Shown here in pieces: positions 1,654-60,804 of a stretch of 64,000 nucleotides of DNA. Numbering within the stretch: position 1 is the stretch's first letter; each line of letters starts with the position of its first letter. The DNA is from Parcubacteria group bacterium (GTDB taxonomy: Bacteria > Patescibacteriota > Patescibacteriia > UBA1558 > GWA2-36-10), in the NCBI GenBank assembly GCA_003104935.1, contig PQAE01000007.1, positions 47,221 to 111,220 of the forward strand. The letters run 5' to 3'. The notes below the pieces were generated by a model that saw nothing but the letters and a program-made list of their open reading frames with translations, ran no database searches and was not told the DNA's origin. A program made the position numbers and the translations under genes.

Positions 1654-3144
1654 ATGGGTACTAAAAATCAACCGTGCACCGATACTGGTGCACGGTTGCC
1701 CCCGCGCAAGCGGGGGCCCAGCTTAAATAATGGCACTACAATTTTTTTGGAGATTATGTTATTATCACTAATACTTTTTAACCCCACTATTATTAACCTA
1801 TTTATCCAAAAAATTCTCAATAAATTAGCCATTTTTTTAGCCGATTCTTTGCTGTGGTTAAAAAATAAGCTGGGCTCCGGACTAAGAGGGTTTGGCCGAC
1901 TGCTGGCCGGCGCCGGTAAAGTTACTATCCTGCCGATAATTTTATTTTTGTATAAAAACATTTTGCTGACCAAAATCCGGTTGAAAAATTTTGACTGGCT
2001 AAAGTTACGCTATCTTACTTTTTTCAAAAAATATCTGCCCGGCCTGATCATCATCATGATCATCACTATCGCCACCTCACATAATATCCTAGCCAAAAAC
2101 TACACCGCGGAAGAATATGTCAACCGTACTTTATTACCGGCCATGATTCAAAGTAGCGATGAAGAACGCAGTACTATCGTAGAAGAAAAAGCTCCGGTCA
2201 CGGCGACCACCGGAATTATTAATTATCTGGATGAACAAGGTAGTCTCCAGGAAATAGTTATCTCCACCCCCTTCCAATCGGATGCCGGCTCCGGTTATGG
2301 GGATGTTACGGCCGATGCCTCCAGCCTGGTCTTAAACACTCCGGAAAACTCCGCGGAAACGTCCGGTGAAGACTTTGGCGACAGCGCCCCGGTCCGTAGC
2401 GAAAATATCAGCTACACTGTCCAGGCCGGCGATGTCTTGGGATCTATTGCCGAAAAATTTGACATCAGCGTTAATACTATCCTCTGGGCCAATGGCCTAA
2501 ACTGGAGTAGCACTATCAGGCCCGGACAAAAACTAGTCATCCTGCCGGGTTCGGGTATAAACTATGAAGTCAAAAAAGGAGATGTCCTCTCCAGCGTGGC
2601 TAAAAAATATCAGGCGGACGTGGAAAAAATAATCCCTGCTAATAACCTGGCCAACGCTTCCAATATTAATGCCGGAGATCTCATCTTTATCCCCGACGGC
2701 GTCAAACCGACCGCCGTGGTTTCCTCTTATAAACCGGCTAAAACCGAAACTATTCCGTCGGTGGTTAGTAAACCAATGGATTTGGGAACCAAATTTTTAT
2801 GGCCGGCCGTCAGCACCCGTATCACCCAATATTTTAGCTGGCGCCATACCGGAGTTGATATCGGTGATAAAACCGGCAATCCGATCTATGCGGCGGAAGA
2901 CGGCAAGGTAACCCGAGCCGGCTGGTCACGGGGCTATGGCAATAACGTTATCATCAATCACGGCAACGGCGTAGAAACTCTCTATGGTCATGCCAGTAAA
3001 TTGCTGGTTGAAGAAGGAGAAACCGTGTCCCGTGGCCAGTTGATCGCCTTGATCGGCTCCACCGGCTGGTCTACCGGACCGCACTTGCACTTTGAGGTGC
3101 GAGTAAATGGCGTCCGGCAAAATGGATTGAACTATATTAAATAA
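1654..3144 (+). CDS. LysM-repeat / M23 family metallopeptidase (cell-wall hydrolase); the true start is probably internal, near 1755
   Basis: Three LysM-like segments (YTVQAGDVLGSIAEKF, YEVKKGDVLSSVAKKY, NINAGDLIFIP) and a C-terminal M23 motif (HTGVDIG...GYGNNVIINHGNG...GSTGWSTGPHLHFEV). The first ~30 codons overlap two GC hairpins and are unlikely to be translated. Confidence 0.8.
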   Translation: MGTKNQPCTDTGARLPPRKRGPSLNNGTTIFLEIMLLSLILFNPTIINLFIQKILNKLAIFLADSLLWLKNKLGSGLRGFGRLLAGAGKVTILPIILFLYKNILLTKIRLKNFDWLKLRYLTFFKKYLPGLIIIMIITIATSHNILAKNYTAEEYVNRTLLPAMIQSSDEERSTIVEEKAPVTATTGIINYLDEQGSLQEIVISTPFQSDAGSGYGDVTADASSLVLNTPENSAETSGEDFGDSAPVRSENISYTVQAGDVLGSIAEKFDISVNTILWANGLNWSSTIRPGQKLVILPGSGINYEVKKGDVLSSVAKKYQADVEKIIPANNLANASNINAGDLIFIPDGVKPTAVVSSYKPAKTETIPSVVSKPMDLGTKFLWPAVSTRITQYFSWRHTGVDIGDKTGNPIYAAEDGKVTRAGWSRGYGNNVIINHGNGVETLYGHASKLLVEEGETVSRGQLIALIGSTGWSTGPHLHFEVRVNGVRQNGLNYIK

Positions 3145-3183: not shown

Positions 3184-4073
3184 TTACGCAAATACGAATG
3201 CGCTACACTAGTATAGCCCTGGGTGGTGCGAATACTGCCGTGACCTAATAATTTCTGGATGTAGCGAATATCCAAGCCACTTTCCAATAAATGCGTGGCA
3301 AAGCTGTGCCGCAAACTGTGGCAAGTGGCCGCTGCGTTAATACCCGCTTTGGTCATGGCAGTAGTAAAAATTTTTTGGGCGGTGCGCTGACTGATGTGCG
3401 AACGATTGCCGGCACCCGGAAAAATATATTCCGAATAATCCGCTCTTTGTTTACTATACGCTTCCCACAGATCAAGACTCTGTAGGCTTAATAAAGTATA
3501 GCGATCCTTGTGTCCTTTGGCGTCCTTAACCAGTAATAATTTTTCGGCGGGTCGCAAATGATCCGGCTTTAATTTTACTACCTCGGAGACCCGCAAGCCC
3601 GATCCGTAAAGCAAGGACAAAAGCAGACGATGTTTAATATTGATCGGAACATTTATAATTCTTATAATCTGCTCGCGCGCTAAAATTGTCGGCAAAAATT
3701 TTTCCCGCCGCGGCCGGCGGACATGAGTGAAGAGACGGCGATGCAAAAAATCATCGTAGTAAAAACGCAAGGCAGAAATAACCAAATTTAAAGAAGTGTT
3801 GGAATACCCACGAGACTTGAGATATAAAAGATAATTTTTTATATCTTGAGCGTTCACTTCTTTGGCCGATTTAGAGACAAAATCCAAAAACCTCTGATTA
3901 TGCCCCAAATAAGCCTTGACAGTCCGATGTGAAAAACCTCTAATAATGAGCTCCTGAACTAAAAAAGCCAAGGGATGAGCCCGAGGCACTAACTCAACTG
4001 TCTTTTTAGCTAAATCTGGACTATTGGTTAAGTCCGACTGACCATTATAGTCAGCAAAAAAATCGCTTTTCAT
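3162..4073 (-). CDS. tyrosine site-specific recombinase, XerC/XerD-like, encoded divergently from the cassette array (candidate array recombinase)
   Basis: Catalytic residues present: RVSEV (Arg), KDAKGHKDRYTLL (Lys hairpin), HSLRHSFATHLL (HxxR), LGHGSIRTTQGYTSV (Tyr). The Lys-to-HxxR spacing is ~55 aa, so the IntI-specific insertion appears absent. Confidence 0.8.
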   Translation of the reverse strand: MKSDFFADYNGQSDLTNSPDLAKKTVELVPRAHPLAFLVQELIIRGFSHRTVKAYLGHNQRFLDFVSKSAKEVNAQDIKNYLLYLKSRGYSNTSLNLVISALRFYYDDFLHRRLFTHVRRPRREKFLPTILAREQIIRIINVPINIKHRLLLSLLYGSGLRVSEVVKLKPDHLRPAEKLLLVKDAKGHKDRYTLLSLQSLDLWEAYSKQRADYSEYIFPGAGNRSHISQRTAQKIFTTAMTKAGINAAATCHSLRHSFATHLLESGLDIRYIQKLLGHGSIRTTQGYTSVAHSYLRNIKSPLD

Positions 4074-8090: not shown

Positions 8091-8239
8091 TTTTATTCTT
8101 TACGCTCGCTCCTCTACATCCCTTCGCCTCCTAATATGATGTTGGCTTTTAAAAGCCAAATATTATATCATATTAGTAGGCTCGGGACGTCGGATATCCT
8201 GGCCTGTTAGGCGAAATTTACTCATCTTTTTATTAAAAT

Positions 8240-9066: not shown

Positions 9067-9209
9067 TACTTTTATTCCTTGACGCTCACTCCTCTACATC
9101 CCTTCGCCTCCTAATATGATGTTGGCTTTAAAAAGCCAAATATTATATCATATTAGTAGGCTCGGGACGTCGGATATCCTGAACCGTTAGCTGAAATATT
9201 TTAAATTTA

Positions 9210-19289: not shown

Positions 19290-19697
19290 CTAATTGAAGT
19301 TTATCTTAAAACTATACATACCCATACCACAGAGGCCTTGCATCGTACCCTTGGCCTGATCGGCGACAATAGCTATTTCTTTGACCCCGGTAGGCTCCAG
19401 GCTACCCCGCCAGCCAAGCTTAGGAATTACCAAGCTGGACGAACAATCATAAGTGCCGTTGGTAGAAACTCTCAAAGTAGTGGCTATATTTGCCTTAGCG
19501 TCGATTACCCGAGGAGTGTAGCCGCCTTTGGCGGTGATATCAATCACTTGCTTATCGCCGATTTGCGAAACTACGTTTGATACTCCTACATCAGATTTAT
19601 CATTAGCCGGCTCGCCTCCCAGGGTAAAGCCGACACCGATAGCGCCGCCCAAAACTACGATGGCTATAATTATAAAAAATATGTTTTTACTTTTCAT
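19290..19697 (-). CDS. secreted hypothetical protein, last gene of the copper cluster; start assigned to the ATG at 19697 (MKSKNIFF...)
   Basis: Signal-peptide-like N-terminus; C-terminal QGLCGMGMYSF. The ORF-track start at 19712 is a TTG. The ATG lies inside the inverted-repeat arm GATCTTTAACGGGATGAA. Confidence 0.5.
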   Translation of the reverse strand: MKSKNIFFIIIAIVVLGGAIGVGFTLGGEPANDKSDVGVSNVVSQIGDKQVIDITAKGGYTPRVIDAKANIATTLRVSTNGTYDCSSSLVIPKLGWRGSLEPTGVKEIAIVADQAKGTMQGLCGMGMYSFKINFN

Positions 19698-19802
19698 CCC
19701 GTTAAAGATCAAATGATTAAATAATTTACAAGTAAATTATTATGCTAAATTTTATAACCGCCAGTGATATGTTTTAAAAAAGATCTCTAACGGGCTTCAT
19801 AT

Positions 19803-24183: not shown

Positions 24184-24261
24184 TGGTGCGCATAGATGGA
24201 TTTGAACCATCGACCCCCACATTATAAGTGTGATGCTCTAACCAAGCTGAGCTATATGCGC
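24184..24261 (-). tRNA. tRNA-Ile (anticodon UAU)
   Basis: Minus strand GCGCATA-TA-GCTC-AGCTTGGTTA-GAGC-A-TCACA-CTTATAA-TGTGG-GGGTC-GATGG-TTCAAAT-CCATC-TATGCGC-A-CCA: perfect acceptor stem, canonical T-loop, anticodon TAT. Confidence 0.8.
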
Positions 24262-25429: not shown

Positions 25430-25700
25430 ATTTTATTTATTTGACTTTTCAGAATAACTTATTAACAGCAGTTTGTCAATCATTTATTTAAAATCCGAAC
25501 CATAATCTGCCCGGTTTGTCTAGAGTCTGACCAATCCGTTATTATTGACTTTAAGTATAAAATATTGTAAGGTGAGAGCGACTAAAAAATTTTAGCAAAT
25601 GCGCATTAGGCGCCTTTTTAAATAAAATCATTCATCCCGTTAGAGATATAGAGCACAATTCTAAGGGGTAAAGTGAATTTAAACATTAATCTCTAACGGG

Positions 25701-27665
25701 ATGAACGTCAGCGCCCTGGCCCGACAACTTAAAGTGACAGTCAGCGAACTTCTGGAAAAATTGCCGGAGCTGGGTTTTGACGTCGGAGCCCGCGCCATAA
25801 AAATCGATGACAAGCTGGTACCGAAGATTATAGAAGCCTGGCGCCGGGCTGACCGCAAAGAAAGTTTCAAAAAAGAACTTTCCCAAATCGAGGAAAGAGG
25901 CCGGGAAAAAAACGACGAAAAAACTGTAGTAGAAAAACAGATCTCCGTCGGCGAAACCATAGTTGTTAAAGATATGGCTGAACTGATGAAACTGCCTGTA
26001 GCCCGACTGATGGGTGAGTTGATGAAAAACGGAATCATGGTTTCTCTAAATGAAAAAGTCGATTTTGATACGGCCACTATCATTGCTGAGGATTTGGGCT
26101 TTAAAGTCGTAAAAACCGATCACGAAGCTCTGGAAGAAATAAGTAAAAAAGCACGCTTGGCTGAATTACTAACGGAAAGAACAGCCACTATCACCAAACC
26201 ACCTGTGGTTGTGGTAATGGGCCATGTCGATCACGGCAAAACTAAACTACTCGATGCTATCCGGTCAACTAATGTGGTAGATCAAGAGGCCGGCGGTATT
26301 ACCCAGCATATCGGTGCCTATCAGGTAGAAACCAAAGGCAAGTTGATCACTTTTTTGGATACGCCCGGACATGAGGCTTTTAAGGCTATGCGTAGCCGCG
26401 GCGGACAAATCGCCGATATCGCTATCTTAGTAGTAGCGGCCGATGACGGCCTGCAACCACAGACTCTGGAAAGCATTTCGGTAATCCAAAAAGAGAGCTT
26501 ATCTTTTATAGTAGCGATTAATAAAATTGACAAAGAAGGCGCCGATCCAGACCGCATCAAACAACAACTGACCGAATTAAATCTAACTCCTGAAGACTGG
26601 GGCGGCAAAACCGTTACCTGTCTGATTTCCGCCAAACAAAAACAGGGCATTAGCGAACTATTAGACCTGGTGTTGCTCATCGCCGATATGGAAAACCTGC
26701 GCGCCGATACGGAAGGGTCGGCCATCGGCACGATCATCGAATCCCATATTGATAAAAGCGCTGGTCCGGTGACCACAGTGCTGGTCCAAGCCGGAACTTT
26801 GCGTGTGGGTGATATGTTTATCGTCGGCGAAGTGCCAGGTAAGATAAAAACTCTACAAAATTGGATGGCTAAGGATGTGGCCGCGGCCACTCCGGGTATG
26901 CCTGTTAAAATACTAGGCTTAAAACTATCCCCAGCTGTGGGCGAAATATTACAGGTTATCTCTGACAAAAAACAATTTAAAGACAAACTAAAGAATCTCA
27001 GCCACCGAGGTCACACTTCCAACAATAACGTCAAACAAAGCGAAGACGAAGACCGTGCCGATGTGACTGTTCTCAACCTGATCATTAAATCCGACGTTTT
27101 GGGCTCGGCCGAAGCCATCGAAGAAGCCCTGTCAAAAATCAAGGTGTCTGACACCAAAGTTAAGGTTATCAAAAAAGGCCTGGGCCAAATTACCGACGCC
27201 GATATTTTGCAGGCCGAAGCTACCGGCGCCATGGTCATCGGCTTTCATATCAAAGAAAATAAGAGTCTGATTTCGCTGATAGATCAAAAAGGCGTCATTG
27301 TCCTCTATTTTGATATTATCTATAAACTACTGGAACACATCGAGGAAACCCTTCAAAATATCAGGGGCAAAAAAACGATTCATAAATTTATCGGCCGCAT
27401 GGAAGTCTTGGCCATCTTTAAAACCACCAAAAAGGGCATGATCGTCGGCGGTAAGGTCATTGAAGGAAAAATAACCAAAAACGCCAAAATTAAGGTCTTG
27501 AAAAGTGGCGAGGTAGAAACCATCGGCCAGCTGATCAATCTCCAAGCCGGCAAGGAAAACGTTTCCGAAGTAATCAGCGGCACCCAGGCCGGTATCGAAT
27601 ATCACGGCGACCCGATCATCGCAGTGGGCGATACATTGGAATTTTTTGAAGAGATCTATGAGTAA
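25701..27665 (+). CDS. infB: translation initiation factor IF-2
   Basis: IF2_N (KVTVSELLEKL); G-domain VVVMGHVDHGKTKLLD, DTPGHEAF, NKID. Confidence 0.9.
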   Translation: MNVSALARQLKVTVSELLEKLPELGFDVGARAIKIDDKLVPKIIEAWRRADRKESFKKELSQIEERGREKNDEKTVVEKQISVGETIVVKDMAELMKLPVARLMGELMKNGIMVSLNEKVDFDTATIIAEDLGFKVVKTDHEALEEISKKARLAELLTERTATITKPPVVVVMGHVDHGKTKLLDAIRSTNVVDQEAGGITQHIGAYQVETKGKLITFLDTPGHEAFKAMRSRGGQIADIAILVVAADDGLQPQTLESISVIQKESLSFIVAINKIDKEGADPDRIKQQLTELNLTPEDWGGKTVTCLISAKQKQGISELLDLVLLIADMENLRADTEGSAIGTIIESHIDKSAGPVTTVLVQAGTLRVGDMFIVGEVPGKIKTLQNWMAKDVAAATPGMPVKILGLKLSPAVGEILQVISDKKQFKDKLKNLSHRGHTSNNNVKQSEDEDRADVTVLNLIIKSDVLGSAEAIEEALSKIKVSDTKVKVIKKGLGQITDADILQAEATGAMVIGFHIKENKSLISLIDQKGVIVLYFDIIYKLLEHIEETLQNIRGKKTIHKFIGRMEVLAIFKTTKKGMIVGGKVIEGKITKNAKIKVLKSGEVETIGQLINLQAGKENVSEVISGTQAGIEYHGDPIIAVGDTLEFFEEIYE

Positions 27666-27984
27666 GAGAACAGAACAGATCGCTTCGCTCTTGGAAAGAA
27701 TTATCAATGAAATACTATTGCGCGACTTTGAACCCCCTTTAGGCACATTGGTCAGCGTCACTAGTGTCACCGTGGCCCCGGACATGAAAAATGCCACCGC
27801 CTATGTCAGTGTCATTCCTACTAATAAGTTGGGTTCTACGTTTGCTCTGGTAAAAAAATTCGGCTCCCACGTCCAGCATCAGCTCCGCCAAAAAATGCAG
27901 ACTAAAATCATCCCCAATATACACTGGGAGATCGATGACCGCGATCTCAAATATGCCAAGATAGACGAGGCACTACGAAGCTAA
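27646..27984 (+). CDS. rbfA: ribosome-binding factor A
   Basis: ...RTEQIASLLERIINEILLRDF...VSVTSVTVAPDMKNATAYVSV; follows infB. Confidence 0.8.
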   Translation: MKRSMSKRTEQIASLLERIINEILLRDFEPPLGTLVSVTSVTVAPDMKNATAYVSVIPTNKLGSTFALVKKFGSHVQHQLRQKMQTKIIPNIHWEIDDRDLKYAKIDEALRS

Positions 27985-28072: not shown

Positions 28073-29038
28073 ATGGAAATCAACAAACTCACTAGTCGCG
28101 CCATCCTAACCGCTGTCCAACAAGCGACTAATATTTTAGTTATCGCTCATAAAAAACCGGATGGTGATACTCTGGGTTCCAACCTAGCCTTTACCAAATA
28201 TCTGCTTAGTGTCGGTAAAAAATTTACCAGCTTTTGCCTACACCCGGCACCATCCCACCTAGCCTTTCTACCTAATAGCCATCTGATCAGTAATGATCAC
28301 CTCACCTTTAGCCAAACTTTTGACCTGGTTATTTTGCTGGATTCCAGTAATTTAGAATATGCCGGCGTTGACAAGCTCATGACCGCACTCCGGCCGGGTT
28401 ATAAAATAATTAATATTGACCACCATGTATCCAATACTATGTTTGGCGATATTAATCTGGTGATCTATGAAGCCTCTTCTACCGCCGAGGTGGTCTACCG
28501 TCTTTTTAAAGACTGGGACATAGACTGGAGTGCGGGTATCGCTTCTTGCCTGGCCTGCGGCATGATCACCGACACCGGCGGATTTAAAAATCCTGCTACC
28601 AACTATATTACACTGCTGGCCGCTTCCGATTTAAAAAGCAAAGGAGCAAATATCCATCAGATTACCAAACAAGCTCTAGGTAGTACAAAGCTCAATAATC
28701 TCCGTTTGTGGGGACGGGCTCTAGAGCGGCTCAGGGACGTGCCACACTATAATCTGATTTATACTTGGCTGACTGAACAGGATTTTACAGAATGCGCTAC
28801 GGATGAATCGGCCGTGGACGGACTGTCAAACTTTTTGCATATTATCAAGGAGGGAAAAATAATTATGGTTCTGCGCCAAAGCAAGGTCGATACCATCAAG
28901 GGGTCACTGCGCACTACCAGTAATATTGACCTGACAAAAATAGCGGAAATTTTCGGTGGCGGCGGACACAAAAAGGCCGCCGGTTTCAGCTTGTCAGGCC
29001 GGCTAGAATGTAATGATGGTCAGTTAATTATCAAATAG
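28073..29038 (+). CDS. nrnA: DHH/DHHA1 bifunctional oligoribonuclease / pAp phosphatase
   Basis: NIDHHVSNTMFGD (DHH) and GGGHKKAAGF (DHHA1 GGGH). Confidence 0.75.
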   Translation: MEINKLTSRAILTAVQQATNILVIAHKKPDGDTLGSNLAFTKYLLSVGKKFTSFCLHPAPSHLAFLPNSHLISNDHLTFSQTFDLVILLDSSNLEYAGVDKLMTALRPGYKIINIDHHVSNTMFGDINLVIYEASSTAEVVYRLFKDWDIDWSAGIASCLACGMITDTGGFKNPATNYITLLAASDLKSKGANIHQITKQALGSTKLNNLRLWGRALERLRDVPHYNLIYTWLTEQDFTECATDESAVDGLSNFLHIIKEGKIIMVLRQSKVDTIKGSLRTTSNIDLTKIAEIFGGGGHKKAAGFSLSGRLECNDGQLIIK

Positions 29039-29953
29039 GAAAATCTTACTTAATAATTCTTTCCTTAATTCCCAAGTATTGGCGTGTTTCAGCACACCGA
29101 GGTACGACGGTGCGTTATTTTTATTTACTAAGCGTAAAATTCTTCTCTTTGTCTTAGTTCGTAAAACTCTATAATGCGGCAAGGTCACATAGCCCAAAAA
29201 ATCTATACCTTGACTGACTTTTCTGATACTTATTTTCCCTGGGTGTATATCTAATCGTAATTGATCCTTTAAAAATGTGTTTAATTCTTTCAAAATATTT
29301 GCTAAATAACCTTTATCTTTATGCAAAATTATAAAATCGTCACAATAACGAATATAAAATTTCTGTTTTAACCCGTGTTTTACAAATTGATCTAATTCAT
29401 TTAGATAAATATTGCCAAAAAGCTGACTAGTTACATTGCCTAAGGGTAGTCCCTTATTATCTGCCGAAGAAAAACTATTAATTATTTTCTTAATTAACCA
29501 CATAACATCGACTTCTTCCACTCTATTCTCTAACAAAGCTAATAGTATCTTATGATCTATATTATTGAAAAACTTCTTGATATCACATTTTAAAGCATAG
29601 ATCTTTTGGCTATAATTCAGGCTCGCTCTAAGCACAAAATTTCCTAATCGTTTAACCCCCTTGTGCGTGCCTTTTCCTATCCGACATGAATAAGAATCAT
29701 ATATAAATTGCTTGTTAAAAATATGATATAATATTCTATATAAAGCTTGATGAACCACTCGATCTCGCACCCCTGCTTTATGGATATGCCTGAGCTTGGG
29801 GTCACAAACATAAAAGGCCTGATAAGGTGCGTGATTATAAGTCTTGTCCACTAATTCTTGGTGAAGTTGAAAAATATTATCTTCAAGATTAAACTCAAAT
29901 TCCTGTGTTTCCACCTTTCTGGTCTTACCCCTTTTAAATTCACGCCAGGCCAA
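29024..29953 (-). CDS. diversity-generating retroelement reverse transcriptase (DGR-1); N-terminus lacks an ATG in the conserved frame
   Basis: RT motifs YALKCDIKKFFNNIDH, GLPLGNVTSQLFGNIYLNELD (the DGR-type xGxxxSQ rather than QGxxxSP) and YIRYCDDFIIL; ~50% identical to the RT at 45002-45988. The ORF-track start is TTG. Confidence 0.85.
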   Translation of the reverse strand: MAWREFKRGKTRKVETQEFEFNLEDNIFQLHQELVDKTYNHAPYQAFYVCDPKLRHIHKAGVRDRVVHQALYRILYHIFNKQFIYDSYSCRIGKGTHKGVKRLGNFVLRASLNYSQKIYALKCDIKKFFNNIDHKILLALLENRVEEVDVMWLIKKIINSFSSADNKGLPLGNVTSQLFGNIYLNELDQFVKHGLKQKFYIRYCDDFIILHKDKGYLANILKELNTFLKDQLRLDIHPGKISIRKVSQGIDFLGYVTLPHYRVLRTKTKRRILRLVNKNNAPSYLGVLKHANTWELRKELLSKIFLFDN

Positions 29954-30027
29954 AAATAAATTATCTAAAGAAATAACTTCATTAAAAAGACTATTATGAT
30001 TATACCCCCCCCCCTCATAAGATAGGT

Positions 30028-30369
30028 TTGCCTATTGTCCATGAGATTACTAATTTATACCGAGAATTATATATCACCCGCCACCAAATACCAAAGGCCG
30101 AACGCTATGGGATTTTTCAGAAAATAGAAAACACAGTATTAGACTGCCTAGAGATTGCCCTCACCGCGGCCTTGACCGAGAAAGACAAAAAATCAATATT
30201 ATTGGTGAGACTAAAAATAAAGATTGAAATCATACAAAAATTAGTAAGATTAATTAGAGAATTAGAAATTATCTCGGAAAGAAAACATATTCTTTTTTCA
30301 CAAAAATCCATAACAATTTCTAAAATGACCAGTGGCTGGCTTAAGTATTTAAATAAAGAGCCTATCTAG
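30028..30369 (+). CDS. Avd-like four-helix-bundle protein (accessory variability determinant), divergent from the RT
   Basis: 113 aa; PKAERYGIFQKIENTVLDCLEIALTAA resembles the Avd / 23S-IVS four-helix-bundle family; paralogous to 46050-46364 at the protein level only. Confidence 0.6.
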   Translation: MPIVHEITNLYRELYITRHQIPKAERYGIFQKIENTVLDCLEIALTAALTEKDKKSILLVRLKIKIEIIQKLVRLIRELEIISERKHILFSQKSITISKMTSGWLKYLNKEPI

Positions 30370-30511: not shown

Positions 30512-30836
30512 TATTTTTTGTTAAGTCCCATCCAAAAACGTTAGATTATATCTATATAACCCAACGCCCCGGCTCTTTGACCGGGCAATGTGTGTGGATC
30601 TTTAAATCCAACCAGAATTTAACAAGCAGTTTCCTTTACCCCGTTAGAGACTTATCTCTAATGGGGTATTTTTTGGCAAATCGCTACCGAGCTAAGCCCG
30701 ACCGATTATATTAGCCATATCTTTATTATACGAAAAGGCGCCGATGATGCCAAGCTTGGTATAGCTTGTTCACCGACGCCTTATGTTTTGTACTTTCTAC
30801 CCCAACCCCGAGGGTTAAAGTAAAAAGTTACAAGGC

Positions 30837-34692: not shown

Positions 34693-35488
34693 AAAAACAA
34701 CTAAAATTATTTTTTTCGGTGATGTAGCCGGATCCTTTGGCCGCCGAGGAGTAAAAAAAATCATACCACTCTGGCAGGGAAAATATCAGCCCGATATTTT
34801 TGTGGCCAATGTAGAAAATCTGGCCCATCACAAGGGTGTGACCATCAAAACTCTGGAAGAATTGCGCTCGGCCGGGATAAAAGCCATGACCGGGGGCAAC
34901 CACATCTGGTCCAAACACGATATTGGCGATTTAGCCCGGGACACTGACTTTGCTTTAGCTTGTCCGCTCAATGATTCACGCACTCCTAAAAAATATTCCT
35001 TTCAATCTGTTCCGGTGGGTGATCAGCAATTGATTTTTATCAACTTGCAGGGCCAGACCTTTATGGAATCGGATTATACCAGCAACCCATTCCTGGCGAT
35101 TGACAAATTACTGCCTGAGTTGCCGGCTGAGGCGATGATTATTGTTGATGTCCATGCGGAAGCCACCAGCGAAAAACGGGCTCTGGGTTTTTATTTGGCT
35201 GGACGGATAGCGGCGGTCATCGGCACCCACACTCATGTGCCTACAGCCGACTCCCAGATTCTGGAAGGCGGCACTGCCTACATCTCTGATATCGGCATGA
35301 CCGGTCCGCTGGACTCTATCTTGGGTATAAAAAAGGAAGTGATTATTGAAAAATTTCTATCTAGTGATCGTATCCGCCATGAATTGCCGGAATCTGGTCA
35401 AACGGAAGTAAATGCGGTATTATTAGAAATAGATAATAGGAGTAAAAAAGCCGTACGAATCGAACACCTTCGCGAAATTATAGATTAA
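34682..35488 (+). CDS. ymdB: YmdB-family metallophosphoesterase (2',3'-cyclic-nucleotide phosphodiesterase)
   Basis: IIFFGDVAGSFGRRGV...GGNHIWSKHD...GTHTHVPTAD; conserved rny-ymdB pairing. Confidence 0.8.
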   Translation: MPAKKTTKIIFFGDVAGSFGRRGVKKIIPLWQGKYQPDIFVANVENLAHHKGVTIKTLEELRSAGIKAMTGGNHIWSKHDIGDLARDTDFALACPLNDSRTPKKYSFQSVPVGDQQLIFINLQGQTFMESDYTSNPFLAIDKLLPELPAEAMIIVDVHAEATSEKRALGFYLAGRIAAVIGTHTHVPTADSQILEGGTAYISDIGMTGPLDSILGIKKEVIIEKFLSSDRIRHELPESGQTEVNAVLLEIDNRSKKAVRIEHLREIID

Positions 35489-35560
35489 AATATACGAATC
35501 CTGTTAGAAGTTTACTGCCTATAACAGGATGAATACATAAAATAAGTAATCTCTAACAGG

Positions 35561-35839
35561 ATGAAGAAAGCCCAACTTATAGAAACTCTAGCCATCAAAG
35601 CCGGAGTAAGCAAAAAGCAAGCCGAGGACCTACTAGATGCTCTGCAAAGTTTAATTATCGAGAGAATGAAGCAAAGCCAGGAAACAACTCTGACCGGTTT
35701 TGGTACTTTTTCCGCCCGCGTACGCTCCGCTCGTTTAGGCGTCAGCCCCCAGCATCCGGACCAAAAAATTCAGATCCCCCAAGTCATCGTGCCCAAATTT
35801 AAAGCGGGTAAAACTCTCAAGGACGCTTTAAAAAAATAA
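35561..35839 (+). CDS. hupB: HU family DNA-binding protein
   Basis: MKKAQLIETLAIKAGVSKKQAEDLLDAL...GFGTFSARVRSARLG...NPQ...PKFKAGK. Confidence 0.85.
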   Translation: MKKAQLIETLAIKAGVSKKQAEDLLDALQSLIIERMKQSQETTLTGFGTFSARVRSARLGVSPQHPDQKIQIPQVIVPKFKAGKTLKDALKK

Positions 35840-45001: not shown

Positions 45002-45988
45002 CTACAAAGGAAAGTCTAAAAGGCCTTTTAACTTCATAGTATTACCGTAACCAAATAGCCCTAAATACGATTGTTTAGTAAATTCATTGTAGTTTTTTAA
45101 TTTGAGCCTGGTCAACATTCTTTTTTTACTTGTTGTCCTCAAAACACGATGATCTGTAAAATGTACCCACCCTAAAAAATCTATACCGGAATACAGGGTT
45201 TTAATAAAAACCTTATCGGGATGTAATTGTAATCGCAAATCATTATTTAAAAAATGTTTTATCACGCCCAAAATATTTTCTAACCATTTTTTGTCCTTAG
45301 ATAATATAACAAAATCATCGGCATATCGAATATAATATTTGGCTTTTAGCTTATGTTTTACAAACTGGTCAAATGTATTCATATAAACATTGACTAGTAG
45401 TTGTGATGTCAAATTTCCTAAAGGTAAACCTTTGTTATTGATGTGAAAACTATCAATCACTCTATTTAATAGCCATAAAATATTTTCATCAGCTATATAC
45501 TGACTTAAAATATCTATTAATATACTATGATCAATATTGGCAAAAAATTTCTTAATATCTCCTTTCAACACCCAAGCTGTTTTGGTATGATTTTGAGATG
45601 CTCGATAAGCAAAATTACAAAACTTGTTTATGGCCTTGTGAGTCCCTTTACCTAAACGGCAGGAATAAGAATCAGCAATAAATGTCGTGTCAAAAAAAGG
45701 ATACAAAACCCTATAGATAGCGTGATGTAATAGTCTATCGCGAACACTGGCCTTATGAATGTTTCTTGGTTTAGGGTCAGAAATATTGAAAGCCTGATAA
45801 TCCGAATGCCAATAAGTCTTATTTTTCAAATCACTATGTAGAGCTATAATATTACTCATTAAATCTAATTCAAATTCTTGGACATCCCGACGACTTCTTT
45901 TGCCTTTGATAAACTCCTGCCAGGCTAAAAGCAAATTTTCCAAAGAAATGATATAATCATAACTATAATTAAATTTAATTTTGCTCAT
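45002..45988 (-). CDS. diversity-generating retroelement reverse transcriptase (DGR-2)
   Basis: GLPLGNLTSQLLVNVYMNTFD (xGxxxSQ), YIRYADDFVIL; ATG start preceded by a G10-TATAAT element. Confidence 0.85.
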   Translation of the reverse strand: MSKIKFNYSYDYIISLENLLLAWQEFIKGKRSRRDVQEFELDLMSNIIALHSDLKNKTYWHSDYQAFNISDPKPRNIHKASVRDRLLHHAIYRVLYPFFDTTFIADSYSCRLGKGTHKAINKFCNFAYRASQNHTKTAWVLKGDIKKFFANIDHSILIDILSQYIADENILWLLNRVIDSFHINNKGLPLGNLTSQLLVNVYMNTFDQFVKHKLKAKYYIRYADDFVILSKDKKWLENILGVIKHFLNNDLRLQLHPDKVFIKTLYSGIDFLGWVHFTDHRVLRTTSKKRMLTRLKLKNYNEFTKQSYLGLFGYGNTMKLKGLLDFPL

Positions 45989-46049
45989 ATGACAGATTAT
46001 ACCCCCCCCCCGTCTATTACCAGTACTTCAAAAACTAAAAAGTGTTTAT

Positions 46050-46364
46050 TTGCTATGGTATAGCTATTACCAAGTTTTGCCAAAAAATCATCGCTATTCT
46101 CTGGGAATAAAAGTTGATAATTTACTGACGGAAACAATAGAATCAGTGGCTACGGCTATTTTCTTGGTACCCAACGACAAATTACCATACGTGCGACGAG
46201 GCATTCAGAAATTAGACACCTTAAAAATATTTCTAATGATTCTCTGGGAAACGAAATCTTTAGACGATAATAAATATATCGCCTTGTCAGTAAAAATAGA
46301 CGAGGTTGGCAAAATGTTGGGTGGCTGGCAAGGACAGATATTAAAACAAAACTCTCCTAAATAA
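46050..46364 (+). CDS. Avd-like four-helix-bundle protein, divergent from RT-2
   Basis: 104 aa; PKNHRYSLGIKVDNLLTETIESVATA; homologous to 30028-30369. Confidence 0.6.
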   Translation: MLWYSYYQVLPKNHRYSLGIKVDNLLTETIESVATAIFLVPNDKLPYVRRGIQKLDTLKIFLMILWETKSLDDNKYIALSVKIDEVGKMLGGWQGQILKQNSPK

Positions 46365-47503: not shown

Positions 47504-47856
47504 ATGTGCCTTGATTCGCCAGAGGGCTCCATTTGGTAGCCATAGCTACAAAAGTCCAATCTTCTTTACCGTCACCCTGAATTTATTTCAGGGTCTGGTA
47601 TGTGAGACTCTGAAACAAGTTCAGAGTGACCATCATTTATTAGGCTTTTGTAGCTATGGCTAGCCAAAATATGCAAGTAAGATATTAATGTACTAACATA
47701 TAATGTTAGCATATTTTATGAATTTTGTCAATAGTAGGTAAATACCCTATATAAAGCCTGTTACTCTGGAGTCTGTAGGACGATAGAGTCTATATGTATA
47801 TAATCTTATGGATTCTATCGCCGCGCTAAGCGCGGCTCCAGAATGACAAATAAAAA

Positions 47857-47973
47857 TGCGGCCAGCCACGCTTGTTCACGGTCATTGCGAGCCCGTCTCA
47901 GGGCGTGGCAATCTAAATGTTTTAGATTGCTTCGTCGCCGTAGGCTCCTCGCAATGACTATTAATTTCCGTGG
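47857..47973. repeat. nested palindromic element; its inner part is shared with 31950-32020
   Basis: GCGGCCAGCCACG...GTCATTGCGAG...TTTTAGATTGCTTCG...CTCGCAATGAC...CGTGGCTGGCCGC. Confidence 0.5.
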
Positions 47974-48025
47974 CTGGCCGCCGCAACTTTTTCTATTTTG
48001 TGTCGCTTTATGTTAAGATATAAGT

Positions 48026-48805
48026 ATGTCTGGAATAAAAGAATATACAAAATATCTCAAAGCCGGTGGTCTAAAAAAACAAACTGTCGAAAATTACCTC
48101 TGGCACACCAGTAAATTTTTGAATTGGCTGGGCACTAATGACTTAAATACGGAAAAAATTAAATCTTATCAGAAAGACTTAGTCCGCTCCGCTTATAGTC
48201 CGGCTACCGTCAACCTTCATCTCATTAGTATCAATAAATATTTAGACTATCGCGGGCTAAAATCAAAGCTTCATCTTGTGGCCGAGCCAACTAAAGAACT
48301 TGATTATCTAAATAAACGCCAGCTGTCTCTCTTTGTGGAGGCCGTGCCCAATACTTCGAAGTTTATTCATCTGCGCGACCGGGCGCTGCTGGAAATACTC
48401 TATACTACCGGGCTTAAAGTGGGGCAGATTATTTTACTAAAAAAGCATCATATTGATACCGTCAAGCAAGAAATAATTTTAGATAATAAAAAACAACTCC
48501 TCCTGCCACCTCTAGCCTGGTCGGCTCTGAAAAAATATCTGGACAGAAGAGTTGACGATATAGATTATTTATTTGTCAATCTGGATAGAGCACAAAAGGG
48601 TAAAGAAATGATGCTATCTATCCGCTCAGTCGAGAGAATTATTGAAAAATACGGCCGCCAGATCGGCTTGGAGGTAACACCGCAAATTTTACGCAATACT
48701 CTGGCCAAAAATCTAAAAAATGACGGCGCCGACCGCGGTCAATTACAAGCACAGCTGCATTTTCATACCAAACTGGGTGCGGAAAATTATCTCAAGAGAA
48801 TTTAA
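48026..48805 (+). CDS. tyrosine recombinase-like protein (small, possibly degenerate active site)
   Basis: 259 aa; N-terminal SAM-like core-binding region; RDRALLEILYTTGLKVGQ (Arg), QILRNTLA (R present, H replaced by Q), ...ENYLKRI (Tyr). Confidence 0.55.
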   Translation: MSGIKEYTKYLKAGGLKKQTVENYLWHTSKFLNWLGTNDLNTEKIKSYQKDLVRSAYSPATVNLHLISINKYLDYRGLKSKLHLVAEPTKELDYLNKRQLSLFVEAVPNTSKFIHLRDRALLEILYTTGLKVGQIILLKKHHIDTVKQEIILDNKKQLLLPPLAWSALKKYLDRRVDDIDYLFVNLDRAQKGKEMMLSIRSVERIIEKYGRQIGLEVTPQILRNTLAKNLKNDGADRGQLQAQLHFHTKLGAENYLKRI

Positions 48806-60475: not shown

Positions 60476-60804
60476 GAATACAAAGCCTTTTAATTCTTTC
60501 TCTAAGGGGTCTCAACCCTGCTTCATTATAACATTTTTTAAAATAAACAAAAAATCATCCCAAAAAATCTCAGAGAGATGATTTTTTGTTTCCTTTTTAT
60601 AGAAACAAATAATGAGCTAGATTAACCCCAGATCTTAACAGCAGTAATGAACAATATAGCAACGAAGACTACCACCACTAAAAGCTCATAGACGTTTACT
60701 TTGGCTTTCATTTTTCCCCTCTTAATGATTATAAATATATTATAGCACAATTTTTAACAAAACAGAATAGTTCCGGACACCAGAAAACTTCCGGCGGCGA
60801 TATT

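Follow-up and report, generated by a model that had tools for sequence, protein, structure and literature searches.

Bacterial MITEs such as Correia/NEMIS, Nezha and MITEAba12 are short, lack a transposase gene and have terminal inverted repeats with a target-site duplication; they occur as dispersed copies with filled and empty orthologous sites, and they give a long RNA hairpin (PMC3184786, PMC10969869). The Rickettsia palindromic elements (RPEs) are selfish palindromes that are tolerated in frame, and translated, in unrelated housekeeping genes (PMC10969869). Neisseria REP2 and similar inverted-repeat sequences of Borrelia lie directly upstream of genes, contribute the ATG and have 5' internal stem-loops, and MIRUs, which are 40-100 bp long, occupy operon junctions, carry tetranucleotide direct repeats and overlap the flanking stop and start codons with their ends (PMC3184786). 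SPRITE is a pneumococcal element that resembles a rho-independent terminator (PMC3184786).

We analysed an inverted repeat that surrounds the infB start codon in a 64,000-nucleotide stretch of DNA from a Parcubacteria group bacterium (the window); the host is a Komeilibacteria-like member of the candidate phyla radiation. The repeat is very probably one copy of a MITE-like, non-autonomous foldback transposable element family. It shares with bacterial MITEs all of the features listed above, but no cognate insertion sequence was found in the 1.3 Mb searched, its repeats, at 13 bp, are very short and are very strongly conserved across hosts, and ~30% of its copies among the matches listed lie exactly on, and rebuild, a start codon. 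Like RPEs, it can be read in frame as a conserved peptide (...NPVRN...ISNGV...). RPEs, however, are ~100-150 bp long, Rickettsia-specific and not described on start codons, whereas the element is 50-100 bp long, occurs in candidate-phyla-radiation/groundwater bacteria and has clear 4-bp duplications; compared by description, it appears to work like RPEs, although the differences in host and size keep us from filing it as a member. The internal stem-loops of REP2 are comparable to the element's A:B hairpin, but REP2 brings a promoter and a ribosome-binding site with it and is tied to a co-regulated gene set, while the element contributes just one base, the first, to the start codon, precedes unrelated genes, and has terminal repeats and a target duplication. 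In the manner of MIRUs, the element can supply both a stop (TAG) and a start (A/G+TG); MIRUs consist mainly of direct-repeat units in tandem, whereas perfect inverted termini define the element, which is inserted within ORFs as well. A minimal copy in the window resembles SPRITE in combining a repeat-derived hairpin with a T-run, but this terminator-like copy is one degenerate member, and full-length members are not terminator-like. Our literature search found the repeat sequence in no paper and likewise no description of MITEs from the candidate phyla radiation; the family, which is common in groundwater bacteria, is apparently undescribed.

The infB start codon lies within a perfect hairpin

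The two arms at infB (25631-25647, TTCATCCCGTTAGAGAT, and 25689-25705, ATCTCTAACGGGATGAA) are 17 nt each, 100% complementary and 41 nt apart, and the infB ATG (25701-25703) is within the 3' arm, just as a preliminary description of this DNA had it. The IF-2 identity of the infB product is backed by Pfam. The copy ends on A25701, with which the infB ATG begins, and the adjoining TGAA (Table 1) gives the TG of the start and, with its AA, the first two positions of codon 2. On the left side the copy has no direct-repeat duplication: TTCA at 25631-25634 is the reverse complement of the right-hand TGAA, and T25635 doubles as the first base of the 5' repeat.

The ATTCAT at this junction corresponds to ATGAAT in relatives, which in one of them (L076) is likewise preceded by AAAATC, and it lies 57 nt from the conserved -10, the median leader in relatives being 53 nt. 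This comparison suggests that the inner GA of the left duplication became TC, a change that would have removed the old ATG and extended the stem from 13 to 17 bp, as might be expected of quasipalindrome template-switch repair. An empty infB allele would read across the junction as ...AAAATCATGAACGTC.

Among 73 related loci, 33 have a motif, TTGACW...TAGTAVAKT, upstream of infB, and the putative infB promoter in the window corresponds to it. Because this promoter lies upstream of the element, the whole element would enter the 5' leader of the transcript. The consensus promoter scan did not itself list the site. When the infB leader was folded as single-stranded RNA, the arm-to-arm hairpin was the minimum-free-energy fold (-40 kcal/mol, z -4.7), as it also was in the hupB and cupredoxin leaders; the infB B-box is able to pair locally with the 5' arm.

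Table 1. Positions of the element copies, their parts and adjoining features in the window
Feature	Position	Strand	Remarks
Retained ancestral cupredoxin start and uORF	19774..19800	-	ATG 19800-19798
Cupredoxin-gene copy	19697..19795	-	99 bp; reads G+CCCGTTAGAGAT ... ATCTTTAACGGG+A
Putative infB promoter	25544..25572	+	TTGACT, 17 nt, TAAGGT; proposed from conservation
ATTCAT, presumed place of the ancestral infB start	25630..25635	+	ATGAAT in relatives
infB copy of the element	25635..25701	+	Delimited by family anatomy
infB copy, 5' repeat	25635-25647		13 bp; T+CCCGTTAGAGAT
infB copy, core	between 25647 and 25689		41 nt
infB copy, B-box	25657..25668	+	AATTCTAAGGGG; degenerate third terminal repeat
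infB copy, 3' repeat	25689-25701		13 bp; ATCTCTAACGGG+A
Right target duplication at infB	25702..25705	+	TGAA
infB (IF-2)	25701..27665	+	Pfam
rbfA	27646-27984		Downstream of infB
Minimal copy	30639..30666	+	Repeats back to back (C+CCCGTTAGAGAC, TT, ATCTCTAATGGG+G); downstream of bAvd gene
ACGAA before the hupB copy	35494..35498	+	5 nt past ymdB stop codon (35486-35488)
hupB copy of the element	35499..35561	+	
hupB copy, 5' repeat	35499-35511		T+CCTGTTAGAAGT
hupB copy, B-box	35520-35534		TATAACAGGATGAAT
hupB copy, 3' repeat	35549-35561		ATCTCTAACAGG+A
Solo arm remnant	60498..60509	-	CCCCTTAGAGAA; leader of prepilin-like gene (MLKKGFTLLEII...)

Copies at hupB, at a cupredoxin gene and elsewhere in the window

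The preliminary description extended the same arrangement, including a perfect 17-bp stem, to hupB and to the gene that starts at 19697. The layout is indeed the same at both, but the perfect stem is particular to infB: the hupB stem is ~11 bp, imperfect and takes in just the AU of the AUG, and the stem at 19697 is 13 bp, imperfect and stops directly before the AUG. The products of the two genes match Bac_DNA_binding and Cupredoxin_1, respectively.

At hupB, the copy ends on A35561, the A of the hupB ATG, and one CCTG/CAGG variant is common to both arms and the B-box. The preceding ACGAA may be what is left of the ancestral start and left duplication (ATGAA, with T changed to C), giving a target duplication in which 3 of 4 bases match. 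The terminal A (19697) of the cupredoxin copy opens the ATG of the gene, and exact TGAA duplications flank the copy (19799-19796 and 19696-19693). Here the old ATG, 2 nt past the stop codon (19805-19803) of an upstream DsbD_2/HMA gene, now begins an upstream ORF of 8 codons, MKPVRDLF followed by a stop, that runs into the 5' arm. Empty alleles would read across the junctions as TAAAATATATGAAGAAAGCC at hupB and TAAATATGAAAAGT at the cupredoxin gene. A search for empty-site orthologues of these two copies, and with it for strain-level presence/absence at hupB, returned the same genome only, the hupB contig being found in run SRR5381729.

Across the window, the motif ATCTCTAACGGGATG occurs 11 times with <=3 mismatches, versus 1.4 expected, and 11 occurrences were reached in 0 of 100 shuffles. 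The loop-less copy noticed earlier is real: it forms a 14-pair stem (30637-30668) followed by TTTTTT, scored as terminator-like and looks like a putative intrinsic terminator.

The repeat belongs to a dispersed family with insertion footprints

A metagenome scan that was blind to the flanks and fixed the gap between arms at 25-55 nt recovered the element in at least 120 stretches; the family counts given here are based on 122 non-redundant copies among the matches listed. The terminal inverted repeats of the family are 13 bp, N-CCCGTTAGARAT ... ATYTCTAACGGG-N', with a complementary 13th (outer) base pair in 116 of the 122 listed copies. An exact 4-bp direct repeat immediately outside this pair was present in 88/122 listed copies, compared to 1/122 for a shifted control. 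Pairing between the arms ends abruptly at 13 bp, and among the listed copies the arms covary almost perfectly, the pair at position 10 being A-T in 105, G-C in 16 and G-T in 1. The 13-bp repeats are very strongly conserved across hosts of 29-57% GC. With the gap fixed at 25-55 nt, sampled copies span 49-79 bp across the outer ends of their 12-nt arm cores; the window and L016 also contain longer copies, of 99-140 bp, and the cores are too short for any protein.

Identical cores were found in unrelated flanks and in both orientations (L082, L085 twice, L086, L094 and L157). At infB itself, L007 carries a clean 74-bp insertion directly after ATGAAT, ending ...CGGGATGAAT (alignment A1), five empty leaders (L062, L010, L004, L076 and L033) read an uninterrupted ATGAATGT, and in L016 the old ATGAA is separated from the present start by two copies in tandem. 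Tandem or head-to-head copies were also seen in L099, L125 and L123. The suggestion that the repeat is a mobile palindrome contributing the translation start is thus borne out by filled and empty sites, 4-bp duplications, unrelated flanks and start codons made of the terminal base plus TG.

In the 1.3 Mb of sequence searched, neither a transposase nor an autonomous partner bearing these repeats turned up. Long-range repeat pairs with matching duplications in this sequence enclose ordinary genes (pilin-like, DUF6057 and LAGLIDADG), and the ORFs beside solitary arms are not transposases. Since no transposase was found, we infer the mechanism of transposition from its footprints only. Viral contigs gave only 3 matches to the element. 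Three further ideas were set aside: a 5- or 6-bp duplication, since most copies match over 4 bp only; a CRISPR-like array, since the tandem copies (L125, L099) have identical "spacers" and target-type junctions; and a TTTA/TAAA class preferring the prepilin G-F-T motif, which was found in 1 of 33, with two more similar by eye.

Copies on start codons, at gene ends and inside ORFs

A long outward ORF whose start uses the element's terminal base adjoins 36 of the 122 listed copies. The start codons of these ORFs (20 ATG, 16 GTG) consist of the last base of the element (A or G) and the duplicated TG. The downstream genes belong to diverse, functionally unrelated housekeeping families; among the 20 longest start-associated ORFs, 17 matched a housekeeping Pfam family and 18 had any Pfam match. 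In 28 cases among the matches listed, the TAG of the repeat closes an upstream gene near its natural end, and the element is also found in intergenic DNA. Of the matches listed, 16 are spanned by an ORF, and in 14 of these 16 the element plus its duplication is a multiple of 3. The resulting read-through peptides take the form ...PVRN...ISNGV (...NPVRN...ISNGV...) or ...PLEI...FLTG, and the ORFs bearing them look UvrB-, NuoG/Fdh-, LipA- and PrmC-like by eye.

Among the matches listed, start codons are occupied by 20 of 24 copies of the T/A-ended lineage vs. 16 of 86 copies of the C/G-ended lineage, and a TAAA duplication is dominant in the C/G-ended lineage and never seen in the T/A-ended one. 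The B-box of the T/A-ended lineage shares a lineage-specific base, and in start-codon copies the B-box lies on the upstream side, 19 to 0 among the matches listed. The terminal A of the T/A-ended lineage makes a fresh ATG from any xTGNN target. Start-codon copies are far more numerous than expected from a simple tolerated-site model, an excess that passive survival alone may not explain. The orientation bias and the near-confinement of the T/A-ended lineage to start codons hint at targeting of, or selection at, start codons; that this lineage homes to start codons instead of surviving there passively is a possibility that we regard as rather doubtful.

For infB, hupB and the cupredoxin gene, we propose that the ancestral start read ATGAA and that its TGAA was the target into which the element integrated. 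Duplication of the target would set a second TGAA at the right end of the element, and, with the frame unchanged, its last base would complete a new start codon, an ATG in the T/A-ended lineage (last base A) or a GTG in the C/G-ended lineage (last base G). Because the start would be rebuilt in frame, the ORF would survive intact, 70-105 nt from the old start, and because the new start codon would be made from the tip of the 3' repeat, the base of the long arm-to-arm hairpin would come to adjoin or include it. Old promoters and operons would read through the element and carry the hairpin into the mRNA, and the start-codon copies that survive may owe their compatible orientation to filtering or to targeting. 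The signatures of mobility, the rebuilt start codons and the breadth of the family are evident in the copies themselves, and the "buried start codon" is a consequence of the anatomy of the element, not a purpose-built regulator.

Alternative explanations

The other suggestion of the preliminary description was a conserved cis-regulatory hairpin of highly expressed genes. As a dedicated leader for infB, hupB and similar genes, such a hairpin would sequester the start codon and act as a thermosensor or attenuator, with A:B pairing set against A:C pairing. The arm-to-arm fold is far more stable than shuffles, the arms covary, the hupB variant forms a three-way match of arm, B-box and arm, the B-box is 5'-sided in start-codon copies and the infB stem has been lengthened, all of which would suit this explanation, and infB and hupB of E. 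coli are cold-shock-induced. The near-perfect covariation and the longer infB stem, being expected also under selection for a hairpin, weigh to that extent against a MITE-like origin, as does the missing direct-repeat duplication of the window's infB copy. However, the element is present at only 3 of 73 infB orthologue starts (L007, L016 and L070) and, apart from L002, absent from the rest, and the decayed copy in L002 implies that the pairing is not needed for infB. Its target duplications and clean insertion boundaries, its occurrence within ORFs, at gene ends and in intergenic DNA, and the unrelated genes downstream, which form no regulon, also argue against a dedicated leader. Rfam gave no match at the gathering threshold and just noise at E up to 1. 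We consider a regulatory leader improbable, and it is disfavoured as the origin of the element.

Folding at equilibrium gave no sign that the B-box relieves sequestration: the mean unpaired probability of the start region was 0.31 for the native core, 0.29 for a flipped core and 0.30 for a shuffled one, compared to 0.53 once the 5' arm was removed. The effect of B-box orientation is statistically detectable and tiny, and a kinetic, co-transcriptional effect is the one possible role that this modelling would leave to the B-box. Translational coupling through a retained old start was likewise rejected. Among the matches listed, 29 copies keep the upstream start, and the uORF, which ends at the TAA of the arm, ends in an overlapping ATGA or runs in frame, reaches the 3' arm in 12 of the 29; this is unconvincing, since a rough calculation gives ~29% by chance in AT-rich cores. 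We detected no Shine-Dalgarno sequence or promoter supplied by the element; a consensus scan for internal outward promoters found none in the infB and hupB copies and weak AT-rich matches only in the cupredoxin copy.

An origin as a REP/REPIN palindrome moved by a RAYT (Y1) transposase, or as an IS200/IS605-derived palindrome-associated element, would account for a short, abundant, hairpin-forming repeat that is intergenic as well as genic and occurs in tandem and head-to-head arrangements. To our knowledge, however, these single-strand systems make no target duplication, which the listed copies have in most cases. The conserved 5' GTAG-type tetranucleotide is absent, the two ends are true inverted copies of one another rather than distinct left and right hairpins, and the surroundings of the copies showed no RAYT or TnpA gene; we hold this origin to be very unlikely. 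It is scarcely credible that a DNA-binding regulator uses the arms as two operator half-sites to bracket promoters, repressing by looping or as a roadblock, even though a perfect palindrome with ~40-70 bp spacing beside gene starts has that appearance, as the spacing ranges from 2 to >100 bp, some copies are inside coding regions, insertions are polymorphic and flanked by target duplications, and both arms are entirely downstream of the conserved infB promoter.

Implications

Insertion of a MITE-like element explains a striking start-codon hairpin without a new regulator, and such palindromes in candidate-phyla-radiation genomes should be taken for riboregulators only with caution. It also defines an apparently undescribed and widespread family of mobile elements. 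The 13-bp ends are unusually compatible with genes: two frames are open, the third holds a TAG stop, and the terminal A/G restores an ATG or GTG, which would allow copies in very compact genomes to survive on a start codon, at the end of a gene or within an essential gene. Gene callers will place starts wrongly or annotate fused peptides at such sites, and strains can be tracked by the presence or absence of the insertions. New leader structures and insertions in proteins may arise from the element. If start-codon targeting is true, it would mean that a transposon chooses its targets in a new way. If insertion is directed to, or selected at, starts, the element would place a portable start-sequestering hairpin before essential genes such as infB and hupB, and the host could use such hairpins for translational control.

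Inverted repeats at three gene starts and other features of the window

The infB ATG at 25701 is the start of a 654-aa ORF whose domain set is that of IF-2, and this ATG lies within the 3' arm of an inverted repeat, as the preliminary description had proposed. The two arms are 100% complementary over 17 nt at a spacing of 41 nt, and the 15-mer ATCTCTAACGGGATG, with up to three mismatches allowed, occurs 11 times in the window versus 1.4 expected, a count of 11 or more being reached in 0 of 100 shuffles. We conclude that the inverted repeat is a real, statistically solid feature. Its reported recurrence at hupB (start 35561, Bac_DNA_binding) and at a minus-strand cupredoxin gene (start 19697) held for the layout upstream of the gene, which is that of infB, but not for a perfect 17-bp stem (the stems are imperfect, ~11 and 13 bp) or a buried start, the AUG being at the stem edge. 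A loop-less copy had also been placed near 30641-30668; there the arms stand back to back (30637-30668) and are followed by a T-run, with a terminator-like score. This minimal palindrome (30639-30666) lies ~270 nt downstream of the first of two bAvd genes.

Both bAvd genes belong to diversity-generating-retroelement-like cassettes, each with a poly-G/poly-C run beside TATAAT between the reverse transcriptase and the bAvd gene. An unrelated inverted repeat with a 26-nt spacer occurs twice, ~1 kb apart, in a low-GC (33-36%) segment with a run of small ORFs that have similar 3' ends, and two long imperfect inverted repeats (arms of 29 and 34 nt) lie just upstream of a tyrosine-recombinase gene.

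Features of the window, and loci in other contigs that carry element copies
Feature	Sequence	Coordinates	Strand	Remarks
infB 5' arm	window	25631-25647		TTCATCCCGTTAGAGAT, 17 nt
infB 3' arm	window	25689-25705		ATCTCTAACGGGATGAA, 17 nt
Promoter-like motif, infB	window	25544-25572		TTGACT-17-TAAGGT
Cassettes	window	29024-30369; 45002-46364
Reverse transcriptases	window	29024-29953; 45002-45988	minus
bAvd genes	window	30028-30369; 46050-46364	plus	divergent from reverse transcriptase
tRNA-Ile	window	24184-24261		TAT anticodon
Unrelated inverted repeat	window	8126-8181; 9106-9161		GCCTCCTAATATGAT / ATCATATTAGTAGGC
Long imperfect inverted repeats	window	47532-47981
Tyrosine recombinase	window	48026-48805		Phage_integrase
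Reverse-complement flanks	window	25631-25634 / 25702-25705		also in L094, L109, L120
Decayed infB copy	L002	2940-3000
Copy within -35 box	L009	5573-5635
Inverted contig ends	L113	122-171; 7532-7581
Prepilin-like leaders	L130; L091; L183; window	2159-2230; 4008-4070; ~958; 60440-60520		copies or arm remnants
In-frame copies, examples	L084; L151; L166; L180; L187	4134-4190; 2234-2299; 1045-1101; 739-789; 3961-4029		11 more
TAG-stop loci, examples	L087; L127; L147; L175	697; 3322; 4816; 557

Filled and empty infB sites in relatives

The infB relatives found in genome collections are Patescibacteria (candidate phyla radiation), mainly labelled Komeilibacteria or Parcubacteria, with at most 72% amino-acid identity. 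Comparison of 73 orthologous infB upstream regions revealed a promoter-like motif, TTGACW-N12-17-TAGTAVAKT, in 33 of them, its median distance from the ATG being 53 nt. From its window counterpart the distance is 57 nt to position 25630, but 128 nt to the start now in use. The palindrome stands at the infB start in just three relatives (L007, L016 and L070), and L002 has a decayed form. When L007 was aligned with five orthologues without the element, a single clean 74-bp block stood out directly after ATGAAT, ending in ...CGGGATGAAT; in L016, a tandem pair of these blocks separates the old ATGAA from the current start. Such an arrangement is that of a target-duplicating insertion. The decayed copy in L002, whose infB is among the two closest to that of the window (72% identity), has the same unusual variant, TCTAAGGG, of the B-box (an internal degenerate third copy of the terminal repeat) and a subterminal AATTAAATCTTAAT. 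On that basis, both lineages may share an old infB insertion, with perfect arms kept only in that of the window.

Most window genes lack a Shine-Dalgarno sequence, and their starts are preceded by A/T-rich stretches. Several have TATAAT just 7-10 nt ahead of the ATG and are possibly leaderless.

A family of palindromic elements in metagenomes

We scanned metagenome sequences for the two 12-nt arms only, CCCGTTAGARAT N25-55 ATYTCTAACGGG, leaving the flanks unspecified. At least 120 stretches matched, with 122 non-redundant copies among the matches listed. In these 122, the two bases just outside the arms are complementary to each other in 116 (C-G 86, T-A 24), the arm's one variable position forms an A-T pair in 105 and a G-C pair in 16, and pairing stops at the inner arm ends. 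An exact 4-bp direct repeat flanks the 13-bp repeats in 88 of the 122 listed copies versus 1 in a shifted control, most commonly TAAA/TTTA (33) and TGAA/TTCA (22). The same cores, the sequences between the arms, were found in unrelated flanks and in both orientations, and junction duplications are common to tandem copies. Complementary 13-bp ends, 4-bp duplications and recurring cores are, at the sequence level, the defining features of a MITE.

The GC content of host contigs ranges from 29 to 57%, and three viral contigs (IMG/VR; L202, L203 and L204) carry full copies. At the two ends of one metagenome contig, L113, the element recurs together with its flanks in long inverted copies, which represent a foldback artefact of assembly or else a composite structure. 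In 1.3 Mb of sequence, neither the stretches between long-range repeat pairs nor those beside solitary arms yielded a transposase; in the literature searched, the repeat sequence is in no relevant paper, and MITEs in the candidate phyla radiation are described in none.

Start codons at element ends

In 36 of the 122 listed copies, a long ORF begins at one end of the element and runs away from it. The start codon (ATG in 20, GTG in 16) consists of the element's terminal base and the first two bases of the duplication, and the upstream flank, in gene orientation, is nearly always an old start (ATGAAT, ATGAAC, ATGAGT, ATGTAT and similar) with the 5' repeat directly after it. Pfam matches were obtained for 18 of the 20 longest downstream ORFs, 17 of them to housekeeping families (PheT, amidase, MurG, RNase R, T2SSE ATPase, aldolase, mevalonate-diphosphate decarboxylase, D-Ala-D-Ala carboxypeptidase, ABC transporter components, PanC, MreC, cytidylyltransferase, ScpA, PP-loop protein and DsbB), and in several of these 17 the domain begins within the first few residues. 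The rebuilt start codons are therefore real, and the genes behind them form no regulon. The eighteenth match, L137, was rejected as a rebuilt start, the element there being inserted in frame within the gene of a glycogen-debranching enzyme.

All three window copies fit the start-rebuilding pattern of the metagenome copies. The cupredoxin copy has exact TGAA duplications, and the old ATG, 2 nt past the upstream stop, now opens an 8-codon upstream ORF. At hupB, ACGAA 5 nt past the ymdB stop is the old ATGAA with one change. At infB, ATTCAT replaces the expected ATGAAT, and the preceding AAAATC is identical in the relative L076. On the left, the 4-mer TTCA is the reverse complement of TGAA, the duplication on the right, and this two-base change removes the old ATG and lengthens the stem from 13 to 17 bp. 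Judging from established mutational mechanisms, one quasipalindrome template-switch event would yield exactly such a change, and an analogous TTTA...TAAA conversion is present in three metagenome copies. In this minority the flanking 4-mers are reverse complements, which makes the palindrome longer; such flanks could stem from quasipalindrome template-switch repair or from recombination between copies.

Copies within ORFs, at stop codons and in leaders

ORFs span 16 listed copies, and in 14 of the 16 the combined length of element and duplication is divisible by three; length remainders 0/1/2 over all listed copies are 58/32/32. The ORF-spanned copies would be translated as ...NPVRN(S)...ISNGV... 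or ...PLEI...FLTG... segments of ORFs that are, by eye, UvrB-, NuoG/Fdh-, LipA- and PrmC-like. The third frame of the terminal repeat holds TAG (CCCGT-TAG-A), which ends a long upstream ORF in 28 metagenome cases; when the element was removed in silico at these loci, the gene end fell a median of 8 codons later. The duplication's own TAA or TGA is the upstream stop in 11 further cases, and at some operon junctions one copy gives the upstream stop and the downstream start together.

At L009, the -35 box of a promoter-like site, TTGACT...TAGTCTAAA, holds a copy whose TTGA duplication restores TTGACT on the side nearer the gene. Some prepilin-like gene leaders have copies or arm remnants at the G-F-T motif, where GGG TTT ACx is similar to the junction of element and target; if in frame, an insertion at this motif would be lost together with the leader peptide. 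A general preference for this motif was rejected, since the motif test picked out 1 of 33 TTTA/TAAA copies, two more being alike by eye.

Regulatory hairpin or mobile palindrome

The preliminary description had offered two readings, a conserved cis-regulatory hairpin and a small mobile palindrome contributing the start of translation. When the three leaders (infB, hupB and cupredoxin) are folded as RNA, the long arm-to-arm hairpin has the minimum free energy in each, at -40 kcal/mol (z = -4.7) for infB, and the start codon is at its base by construction of the element. The whole element is probably present in the mRNA of these genes, because read-through is implied by where the conserved promoter lies and by the operons concerned (rny-ymdB-hupB; copper cluster); consensus scans for an internal promoter gave none that was clear. 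In equilibrium modelling, start-region accessibility was low with either core, at 0.31 for the native and 0.29 for a flipped one, and rose to 0.53 when the 5' arm was left out. Arm pairing is dispensable for infB, as the decayed copy in L002 shows. With the palindrome at the infB starts of just those few relatives and no regulon, a dedicated regulatory role as the element's origin is not supported; the hairpin may have acquired such a role. Filled and empty infB sites, 4-bp duplications and rebuilt starts bear out the mobile palindrome.

The B-box is present in half of the start-codon copies, on the upstream side in 19 and the downstream side in 0. The base at its end varies together with the outer pair that marks the lineage (G in 14 of 16 C/G copies, A in 7 of 10 T/A copies). 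Among listed copies, 20 of 24 T/A-ended versus 16 of 86 C/G-ended ones are at start codons (odds ratio 22, p = 8e-9), as are 18 of 22 with a TGAA duplication; equal tolerance of start-codon and intergenic TGAA sites in the window would predict ~9%. B-box orientation and the start occupancy of T/A-ended copies suggest something beyond neutral survival. They would point either to insertion directed at starts or to strong selection favouring start copies in one orientation, a reading that we retain though we rate it as rather unlikely.

The mobile palindrome is an apparently new family of MITE with unusually neat start-codon regeneration. Its gene-compatible behaviour resembles that of Rickettsia palindromic elements, MIRUs and Neisseria REP2 (PMC10969869, PMC3184786). 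The 13-bp end is compatible with genes in every frame, which explains the persistence of the element in compact genomes.
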